This document shows, one piece after another, positions 13,755 to 14,543 of a stretch of 64,000 bases of DNA (position 1 is the stretch's first letter; each line of letters opens with the position of its first letter). The notes under the pieces are model-generated. The model was not told where the DNA came from. It searched no databases and was given only the letters and a program-made list of their open reading frames with translations. Both the position numbers and the translations under genes were made by a program. Source of the stretch: an uncultured bacterium (lineage in GTDB: Bacteria; Desulfobacterota; Deferrimicrobia; Deferrimicrobiales; Deferrimicrobiaceae); the NCBI GenBank assembly GCA_963829245.1, contig CAWHIM010000037.1:139414-203413 (forward strand). The letters are read 5' to 3'.

Positions 13755-13832
13755 GCCTAACACGCGGCTCAACCGGACGCGCTTCATTCGGCTTCGCCTC
13801 TTTTCGTGCGCCGGTTAGCCACAACGTTGGGC
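13755..13832 (+). mobile_element. integron attC recombination site (78 bp)
   Basis: R'' is GCCTAAC and R' is GTTGGGC. The internal imperfect palindrome GGCTCAACCGG / CCGGTTAGCC has an extra-helical base. Confidence 0.6.
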
Positions 13833-13881
13833 GCCTTAACATCAAGCGCGCAAGCTTGGCATGACTATCTGAGGTGCTCTC

Positions 13882-14424
13882 ATGAGTCAGTTGAAACTGA
13901 GCAAGGCTTTTACCCTGATGGAATCAGGGCCTGTGGTCCTCGTGACAACCCATGATGGGAAGAAAGACAACATCATGACGATCTCCTGGACCATGGTGAT
14001 GGATTTCACTCCGGTATTTGCTATCACCACGGGTGAATGGAATCACTCCTTCGCGGCGTTGCGAAAGAATCGGGAGTGCGTCATTGCAATTCCCACCGTC
14101 GACCTATTGGATAAGGTGGTTGGCATAGGGACGTGCTCTGGGGCAGACACAGACAAGTTTGCCAAGTTCAAGCTCACACCGGTGCAGGCCACGCTCGTCA
14201 AGCCGCCCTTGATCAAGGAGTGCCTCGCCAACATTGAGTGCAAGGTCATCGACATCGTTAAAAAGCACAACATTGTTGTGTTGGAGGCGGTTGCCGCATC
14301 CATCGATACCGCACGCAAGGAGAAGCGCACGGTTCACGCGGTTGGTGACGGAACGTTCATCGTCGACGGGCGCAAGATCGACCGGAAGAAGATGATGGCC
14401 TCCAAGCTCCCATCAGGCGTTTAG
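13882..14424 (+). CDS. flavin reductase-like FMN-binding split-barrel protein, carried as an integron-type gene cassette
   Basis: Intact 180-aa ORF with VVLVTTHDGKKDNIMTISW...ECVIAIP. It is the single ORF between the two attC crossover points (13827-14537). Confidence 0.8.
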   Translation: MSQLKLSKAFTLMESGPVVLVTTHDGKKDNIMTISWTMVMDFTPVFAITTGEWNHSFAALRKNRECVIAIPTVDLLDKVVGIGTCSGADTDKFAKFKLTPVQATLVKPPLIKECLANIECKVIDIVKKHNIVVLEAVAASIDTARKEKRTVHAVGDGTFIVDGRKIDRKKMMASKLPSGV

Positions 14425-14480
14425 CGTTCATTGGCCAGCCACGAGGAAGTCCTGGGAGCAAAAATGAAAAGCACGGCGGC

Positions 14481-14543
14481 GCCCAACAATTCGTTCAAGC
14501 GGACAGGTCCTGTCGGGCCTGCCGCTTATCTCAAACGTTGGTA
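14481..14543 (+). mobile_element. integron attC recombination site (63 bp)
   Basis: GCCCAAC-AATTCGTTCAAGC-GGACAGGTCCTGTCGGGCCTGCC-GCTTATCTCAAAC-GTTGGTA. From memory this closely resembles aadA-type attC. GCGCCCAAC (14479-14487) is the perfect complement of GTTGGGCGC (13826-13834). Confidence 0.75.

Follow-up and report, generated by a model that had tools for sequence, protein, structure and literature searches.

Clusters of attC sites that lack an integron integrase (CALINs) are defined as at least two attC sites with no integron integrase gene (intI) nearby (Cury et al. 2016, PMC4889954). To count as one cluster, sites must lie on the same strand and <4 kb from each other. The 2016 survey counted 279 CALINs in complete genomes (PMC4889954), and a later survey of 21,105 RefSeq genomes found 2961, of which 1362 had two attC sites only (bioRxiv 10.1101/2022.09.11.507474). 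The two-attC CALIN is the commonest size class and is not unusual. In this report, we describe a 64-kb stretch of DNA (the window) from contig CAWHIM010000037.1 of an uncultured Deferrimicrobiaceae bacterium, in which two attC sites (attC1 and attC2) bound a gene cassette that encodes a flavin reductase. The locus is very probably a two-attC CALIN, that is, an array fragment without an integrase that was cut from a larger array and now lies in a degraded integrated element beside a tRNA-fMet gene. How most CALINs originate remains a matter of debate in the literature, and this locus would provide a clean and well-bounded example of one that arose as a piece clipped from a larger array rather than by integrase-mediated insertion.

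On every CALIN criterion that could be tested, the locus agrees with the published definition. The two attC sites are 649 bp apart on the + strand, the open reading frame (ORF) for the flavin reductase is co-oriented with both of them, and there is no intI nearby. A recognisable intI pseudogene is also absent, as in 95% of the published CALINs (PMC4889954). Nothing essential separates the locus from these; what is directly visible here is the apparent origin from a clipped array, through the truncated cassettes on both sides. An annotation made from the sequence alone (the first-pass annotation) had described the locus as CALIN-like with no integron integrase in the window, and this description stands. 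The truncated neighbouring cassettes, the island bounded by tRNA repeats, and the ordinariness of the CALIN class were not part of it.

Other described systems also come close to this one. Single attC sites lacking integron integrases (SALINs) and the attG insertions of Loot et al. likewise place cassettes outside an integron platform, in a region without intI. A SALIN consists of a single attC site with intact cassette ends on genomic DNA, whereas here there are two attC sites with truncated neighbours. Cupin and flavin-reductase cassettes like those in the window are also found in environmental chromosomal integron arrays, some of which have an integron integrase (IntI) on the same contig (L117, L120, and L135), whereas the window contains a 0.8-kb piece of an array without an integrase.

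Results and Discussion

Identification of the attC Sites

Two covariance models were used to search for attC sites. The seed model (R1) was built from 10 attC sites of annotated class 1 integrons on plasmids (aadA1, aadA2, psp, cmlA1, qacG2, oxa-1, aacA4, estX, lnuF, and oxa-2), with the aligned members given the canonical R-box and L-box structure and two bulges. The broader model (R2) was built from 120 attC sites near IntI1-like genes. With R1, attC2 scored 42.4 bits (E 5e-8) and attC1 scored 40.5 bits (E 1.5e-7). In a search of 148 kb, comprising the window and seven related loci, R1 recovered only these two sites and their orthologues in the syntenic relative L001, and the next match had an E-value of 0.26. 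The scores with R2 were 46.9 bits for attC2 and 45.5 bits for attC1, with E-values of about 1e-8 to 1e-9. No further attC site was found across the 64-kb window by R2 with the filters off, the next best match having 13.9 bits (E 0.43). As a control, R1 was applied to 80 genomic loci (1.1 Mb) that encode IntI1 or a 73-77% identical chromosomal IntI; 119 of the 120 matches were on the strand expected for cassette arrays, and these 120 matches were the sites from which R2 was then built. The two sites in the window are genuine attC sites. The first-pass annotation had assigned attC architecture to both, and the strings that it quoted are in place, with R1 and R2 matching at exactly the same coordinates.

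The outer boxes of both sites fit the consensus R'' (RYYYAAC) and R' (GTTRRRY), except for the final two bases of R' in attC2. This deviation is expected because these two bases belong to the next cassette. In attC1, L'' is GGCT-C-AACCGG, in which the central C is bulged, and L' is CCGGTTAGCC; the earlier annotation had noted an internal palindrome with a bulged base at this site. In attC2, L'' is GTTCAAGC and L' is GCTTATC. In the model alignment 17/17 pairs are canonical in attC1, and three pairs are non-canonical in attC2 (two in the distal R box and one T.T in the L box). The top strand of both sites has a bulged C in L'' and, two bases on, a bulged A; in aadA1 the bulges occupy identical positions of the model. 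The two bulged bases correspond to an extra-helical G and T on the bottom strand, which is the strand that is recombined. The single-base bulges are seen in the bottom-strand DNA folds of both sites, where the first-pass annotation had proposed to look for extra-helical bases.

The resemblance of attC2 to an aadA-type attC, which the first-pass annotation had pointed out, is borne out by direct comparison: attC2 is ~76% identical over ~57 nt to the attC directly after aadA1 (1916 plasmid records). Common to attC2 and the aadA1 and aadA2 sites are R'' (xxCxAAC), L'' (GTTCAAGC), and L' (GCTTAxC), both bulged bases (the C within L'' and the A two bases on), and the spacers AATTC and TCAAxC. The differences are the central variable stem-loop and the single T.T mismatch in the L box; in addition, attC2 serves a flavin reductase and not a resistance gene.

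Other candidates and searches were set aside. A home-made scan for AAC...GTT hairpins in which the R boxes pair in part was dropped, having returned dozens of matches in coding DNA and missed the L001 orthologues. An Rfam scan of the window at gathering thresholds identified tRNA only; Rfam is without an attC family. The segment at 48757-48842 satisfies the strict RYYYAAC...GTTRRRY pattern, yet it scored merely 8.4 bits and was rejected as an attC site. It comprises 86 nt between a perfect GTCCAAC / GTTGGAC inverted pair, the strict pattern fits on both strands, and it overlaps the stop codon of an M24 peptidase ORF (47641-48768).

The Flavin-Reductase Cassette

The apparent layout of the locus is Δcupin-attC1 / flavin reductase-attC2 / Δnext (Table 1). 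Both boundaries of the central cassette are G^TT crossovers, and the single-ORF unit is found in different array contexts. The left boundary is revealed by contigs L092 and L093 (96% nucleotide identity), which are homologous to the window from 13825, at R' of attC1, and have two different upstream contexts. The right boundary is revealed by the 3-kb contig L098 (four to five attC sites), whose homology to the window (13726-14545) ends at R' of attC2 and is followed by a different cassette. The flavin-reductase gene is also followed by attC2 in L001, L098, and L122, and in L122 the order of the cassettes is flavin reductase-attC2 ... cupin-attC1. Junctions at G^TT are found in many independent contig contexts.

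The other listed ORFs of at least 50 aa in the 711-bp unit all lie inside the flavin-reductase frame and are taken for shadows, with the flavin reductase as the sole plausible gene of the unit, in keeping with the single ORF reported previously. The start of the cassette (13827-13834, TTGGGCGC) is the reverse complement of 14479-14486, in agreement with the first-pass annotation, but the full complementarity is one base longer than had been stated: 9 nt, with 13827-13835 (TTGGGCGCC) pairing against 14478-14486. In the circular form of the 711-bp unit, the R stem would therefore be restored as 10 perfect base pairs, and the earlier proposal of a paired R box in the circle holds.

The flavin reductase has 7922 homologues, and the best 120 of these are 88-97% identical in protein sequence. 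The named sources among the best 120 include Azonexus, Rhodoferax, Geobacter, Propionivibrio, Thiobacillus, and Halopseudomonas, among others. An exact-sequence look-up of the flavin reductase from the window returned no database record, and no report of an integron cassette with a flavin reductase was found in a literature search. Copies of the gene that lack these attC sites are present in Rhodoferax sediminis (L002), in Geobacter (L005), and in contigs L100 and L094. In L094 it lies beside an integron, and we asked whether it is bounded by attC sites there; it is not, the last attC being 640 bp upstream. In L099 (630-700) the attC of the flavin-reductase cassette is internally deleted so that R'' nearly abuts R' (GCCCAAC-TCAAAG-GTTCGCG). 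In L092 (1313-1400) and L093 a short palindrome, GCCAAAC...GTTTGGC, takes the place of the sequence past 14455. These attC remnants in L099 and L092/L093 look like stages of attC loss.

A promoter scan of the + strand from 13609 to 13882 gave nothing convincing, and no Pc promoter is present. Expression of the cassette would therefore depend on read-through. The cassette is static in its present place and its expression is uncertain.

Truncated Neighbouring Cassettes and the Probable Source Array

The sequence on the left of attC1 is the end of a cupin cassette. Homology between the window and 80 metagenomic loci with attC1 begins at 13725/13726 in 64 of the 80, and this position is just past the cupin stop codon, so placed that no cupin ORF is left in the window. 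Of the 59 loci whose upstream sequence is long enough, 56 have the 3' end of a conserved 114-aa Cupin_2 ORF upstream of attC1. JGI metagenome contigs contain 119 exact matches to the 23-nt core of attC1, and the 30 nt after R' represent 66 distinct contexts among 77 loci. From the recurrent cupin 3' end upstream and the 66 contexts downstream, it follows that attC1 is the attC of a very mobile cupin cassette. The relative L001 retains the last ~22 cupin codons. A reading in which a longer conserved attC module has its border at 13725 was abandoned, the raw alignment showing the truncation of the window itself inside a conserved cupin cassette.

The sequence on the right of attC2 appears to be the start of a third cassette. 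L122 and L001 are alike for ~38 nt past attC2, and the homology of the window to both of them ends at 14560.

Larger arrays of this kind are represented among the contigs. The cupin and flavin-reductase cassettes are found in multi-attC arrays in L098, L122, L173, and others, and IntI homologues that are 54-62% identical to IntI1 are encoded on L117 (1-878), L120 (3-362), and L135 (9-209, reverse-complemented). In these three contigs the IntI homologue is on the attC strand with its 3' end toward the array, an "inverted integrase" arrangement and not the divergent layout of class 1 integrons. L098 begins (1-211) in the 3' end of the cupin cassette and ends (2846-3032) in the 5' part of the same cassette; its array has either two copies of the cupin cassette or an assembly break at the repeated cassette.

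Both outer ends of the fragment in the window are inside cassettes and not at crossovers, and the fragment was therefore probably clipped or left over from a larger array and not delivered by IntI. An ordinary deletion or illegitimate recombination would have cut the larger array and left the fragment behind.

Table 1. Coordinates of the attC locus and of the associated island features in the 64-kb window
Feature	Coordinates	Strand	Size, motifs, and evidence
Tyrosine recombinase gene remnant	11463-12118	-	compared by blastn and tblastn with the intact orthologue of L001 (316 aa)
tRNA-fMet (CAT), island integration target	12985-13061	+	ARAGORN; Rfam tRNA, 63.8 bits
3' end of truncated Cupin_2 cassette	13725-13754	+	~30 nt, untranslated; hairpin GGCCCGAC/GTCGGGCC
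attC1 (site 1)	13755-13832	+	78 nt; R'' GCCTAAC 13755-13761, R' GTTGGGC 13826-13832
Complete flavin-reductase cassette	13827-14537	+	711 bp, crossover to crossover; contig comparison
Flavin reductase ORF (PF01613)	13882-14424	+	180 aa; ribosome-binding site GAGGTG upstream; Pfam Flavin_Reduct, E 2.6e-24
attC2 (site 2)	14481-14543	+	63 nt; R'' GCCCAAC 14481-14487, R' GTTGGTA 14537-14543
Start of putative third cassette, truncated	14538-14560	+	~23 nt; same sequence after attC2 in L122 and L001
Direct repeat of tRNA 3' part (anticodon loop to 3' end)	14869-14927	+	86% over 57 nt, core 24/24
Second, degenerate tRNA 3' repeat	17692-17715	+	3 mismatches / 24 nt
Third, short repeat of tRNA anticodon-loop region	50258-50275	+	exact 18-mer

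Search for an Integron Integrase

A tblastn search of the window with IntI1 and a chromosomal IntI as queries gave a sole match, the ORF at 1375-2361. This ORF is XerD, with 356 bits on the XerD model (cutoff 329.6) and 130 bits on the IntI model (cutoff 265). The recombinase remnant at 11463-12118 has an internal deletion of ~440 bp that removes most of the catalytic domain, and its Pfam domains are Phage_int_SAM_3 and Phage_integrase. The intact orthologue in L001 reaches only 29.9 bits on the integron-integrase model TIGR02249 (cutoff 265), and its identity to IntI1 is 25% over 141 aa; we therefore agree with the first-pass annotation that the truncated integrase near the attC sites is not IntI. 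No other tyrosine recombinase was detected when 30 more ORFs in the 18-52 kb interval were scanned with Pfam. There is no integron integrase in the 64-kb window, and the locus is not a complete integron.

Origin of the Locus

Several considerations weigh against the interpretation of the locus as a two-attC CALIN cut from a larger array. R1 and R2 are surrogates for the attC model of IntegronFinder, and their E-values are roughly calibrated. In fold energy, attC1 cannot be told from shuffled sequence (z = -1.0, compared with -2.7 for attC2); the attC call rests on the covariance models and the contig comparisons and not on fold stability. The remnant of the third cassette amounts to just the 23 nt common to L122 and L001. 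The ancestral left junction is lost because the end points of the deletions in the window and in L001 differ. Excision and recombination at this locus are predicted from attC biology. Finally, an intI may exist elsewhere in the genome, of which 64 kb is visible. Such a gene would leave the CALIN label unchanged and would make the cassette mobilisable in cis within the genome.

The best surviving alternative is that IntI inserted the cassettes at a genomic site that is not canonical (the SALIN or small-CALIN route, attC x attG) and that deletions later trimmed the ends. Recombination between attC and attG has been proposed as the origin of small CALINs (bioRxiv 10.1101/2022.09.11.507474), and the loss of the original left junction is compatible with it. 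However, this reaction puts genomic DNA right after the G of the last R', and what follows here is the start of the next cassette, as in L122. Moreover, the left end is inside the cupin cassette in both the window and L001. The attG route is disfavoured since array context is kept on both sides, and we regard it as unlikely.

It is also conceivable that the tRNA-fMet hotspot, the tyrosine recombinase that is not IntI (intact in L001), and the tRNA-derived att sequences together constitute a platform that accretes modules independently of integrons. Such a platform would take up toxin-antitoxin pairs and attC-bounded cassettes, could also exchange them, and might even act on attC hairpins. A clipped array fragment, however, accounts for the only attC sites present, and attC is absent from the other modules. 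This proposal is highly improbable.

The first-pass annotation had drawn attention to the truncated integrase, and a complete integron that formed in situ and then decayed, with this gene as its former intI, is scarcely credible. The geometry is superficially integron-like, the remnant being 1.6 kb from attC1 on the opposite strand, and in L001 the intact copy of the integrase is followed by many small toxin-antitoxin modules. Against this stand the TIGR02249 score of the intact orthologue and its low identity to IntI1. The tRNA gene, with its promoter and terminator, separates the integrase from the attC sites. The toxin-antitoxin array after the tRNA in L001, considered as a possible cassette array, was found with the covariance models to contain no further attC, and the arrangement in L221 (below) identifies the integrase segment as a separate insertion. 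The notion that the two sites are chance palindromes or transcription terminators resembling attC, for which one may cite a GC-rich and hairpin-rich genome, the dozens of matches in the loose scan, and the ordinary fold energy of attC1, can be dismissed on the model E-values of 1e-7 to 1e-9 with nothing else in 64 kb, on the sequence identity of attC2 to the aadA1 attC, and on the junctions exactly at G^TT in many independent contigs, which refute it.

For the cassette fragment in the window, the steps of excision can be proposed by analogy with other attC sites. Given IntI in trans, hairpins would form on the bottom strand at both attC1 and attC2, and in these hairpins the extra-helical G and T would mark the strand for recombination. 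IntI would cut 5'-AAC-3' between A and C (G^TT on the top strand), and recombination of attC1 with attC2 would free a 711-bp circle with a perfectly paired R box. The predicted junction of the circle reads ...GCGCCCAAC...CTCAAACG, continued directly by TTGGGCGCC, and the circle could enter an attI elsewhere. The two intact attC sites keep the cassette a substrate for any incoming integron integrase.

The cassette is a non-resistance cassette in a Thermodesulfobacteriota genome. The 88-97% protein identity to the 120 closest homologues, which include sequences named as Betaproteobacteria, Geobacter, and Halopseudomonas, suggests cross-phylum traffic of an environmental cassette pool. The locus leaves the current understanding of CALINs unchanged and adds one more documented instance.

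The tRNA-fMet Island and Its Relatives

The initiator character of the tRNA gene, which had been proposed previously, is supported by the features read from its sequence: a mismatched C1xU72, A11:U24, and an anticodon stem with three G:C pairs. The attC fragment does not lie directly 3' of it, as the first-pass annotation had stated; it begins 694 nt past the tRNA, with a reverse-strand ORF between. The 3' part of the tRNA is repeated three times in direct orientation, from which we infer a composite island of ~37 kb downstream of the tRNA. The 57-nt match of the first repeat is between 13019-13075 and 14871-14927, with a chance expectation of zero, and the third repeat is the probable distal end of the composite island. 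The repeats would mark an island that grew downstream of the tRNA through successive integrations. The attC pair is inside the first 1.85-kb segment, which is closed by the first repeat. The position of the fragment next to a tRNA, which had been thought unusual, is explained by its location between tRNA 3' repeats, inside what is left of an integrated element.

In these respects the region resembles the tRNA islands formed by tandem accretion, with which it shares the tRNA 3' repeats (14869, 17692, and 50258), a lower G+C content (GC), tyrosine recombinases, and toxin-antitoxin and defence genes. It differs in that the island is merely the carrier of the fragment, and its own integrase is inactivated in the window. 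The GC falls from 67% (1-11400) to 51-60% from 11.4 kb, at the boundary between DHDPS and the integrase, and 67% is not regained by the end of the window. The GC of the attC block is 54.7%.

The syntenic relative L001 is 93.7% identical over 6.5 kb of core genes. It shares an 835-bp attC block that is 96.3% identical, with different neighbours, and it has the intact integrase followed by the toxin-antitoxin modules. No attC was found in the stretches of two further syntenic contigs, L220 and L221, that cover 3.8 and 1.7 kb beyond the tRNA, respectively. Tyrosine recombinases are present at the tRNA locus in all of the relatives. In L221 (14852-15088) the tRNA abuts DHDPS, and a different integrase of 373 aa and an HTH_17 gene come after the tRNA. 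In the window, the integrase remnant and a MazE-PIN pair are between DHDPS and the tRNA (11415-12984). Since the tRNA adjoins DHDPS in L221, the segment with the integrase, which lies left of the tRNA in the window and in L001, is a separate insertion. The promoter region of the tRNA in the window is unlike those of L001 and L221. The intergenic spot between DHDPS and the tRNA appears to be a second insertion hotspot.

The interval from the tRNA terminator to the attC fragment is taken up by the reverse-strand ORF (13255-13608), which encodes 117 aa with a lipoprotein-type signal (…VFASC…) and belongs to no Pfam family. No counterpart of this ORF was found in L001 or in any of the 80 loci with attC1.

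A defence-type cluster at 17885-26556 contains a NERD nuclease with a UvrD-like helicase, split into 18477-19328 and 19283-19813, and a C-5 cytosine methylase, split into 19854-21014 and 21011-21457. Further members are an HATPase_c_3 protein (22022-23497), a Z1-domain protein (24754-25995), and DUF4420 (26128-26556). Split or shortened genes are found at 18477-21457, 44792-46981, and 47641-49742 (UvrD, Dcm, the TRAP transporter DctP/DctM, and the M24 peptidase). Either these are pseudogenes in an island that is decaying, or long-read assembly introduced indel errors; contig names among the relatives suggest long reads. The ORF at 6948-7934 is partly spurious, and only its ScpA part has a match, at 97% identity, to a MAG named as an uncultured Thermodesulfobacteriota bacterium, which sufficed for placement of the host.

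There are three PIN toxin-antitoxin modules, at 12271-12902 (MazE/AbrB-PIN), 16968-17643 (Phd-PIN), and 50346-51005 (VapBC). L001 has modules with 88% identity to the Phd-PIN module and 92% identity to the VapBC module, and their positions relative to the tRNA repeats differ. Judged from these positions, the toxin-antitoxin modules appear to have been shuffled between relatives.

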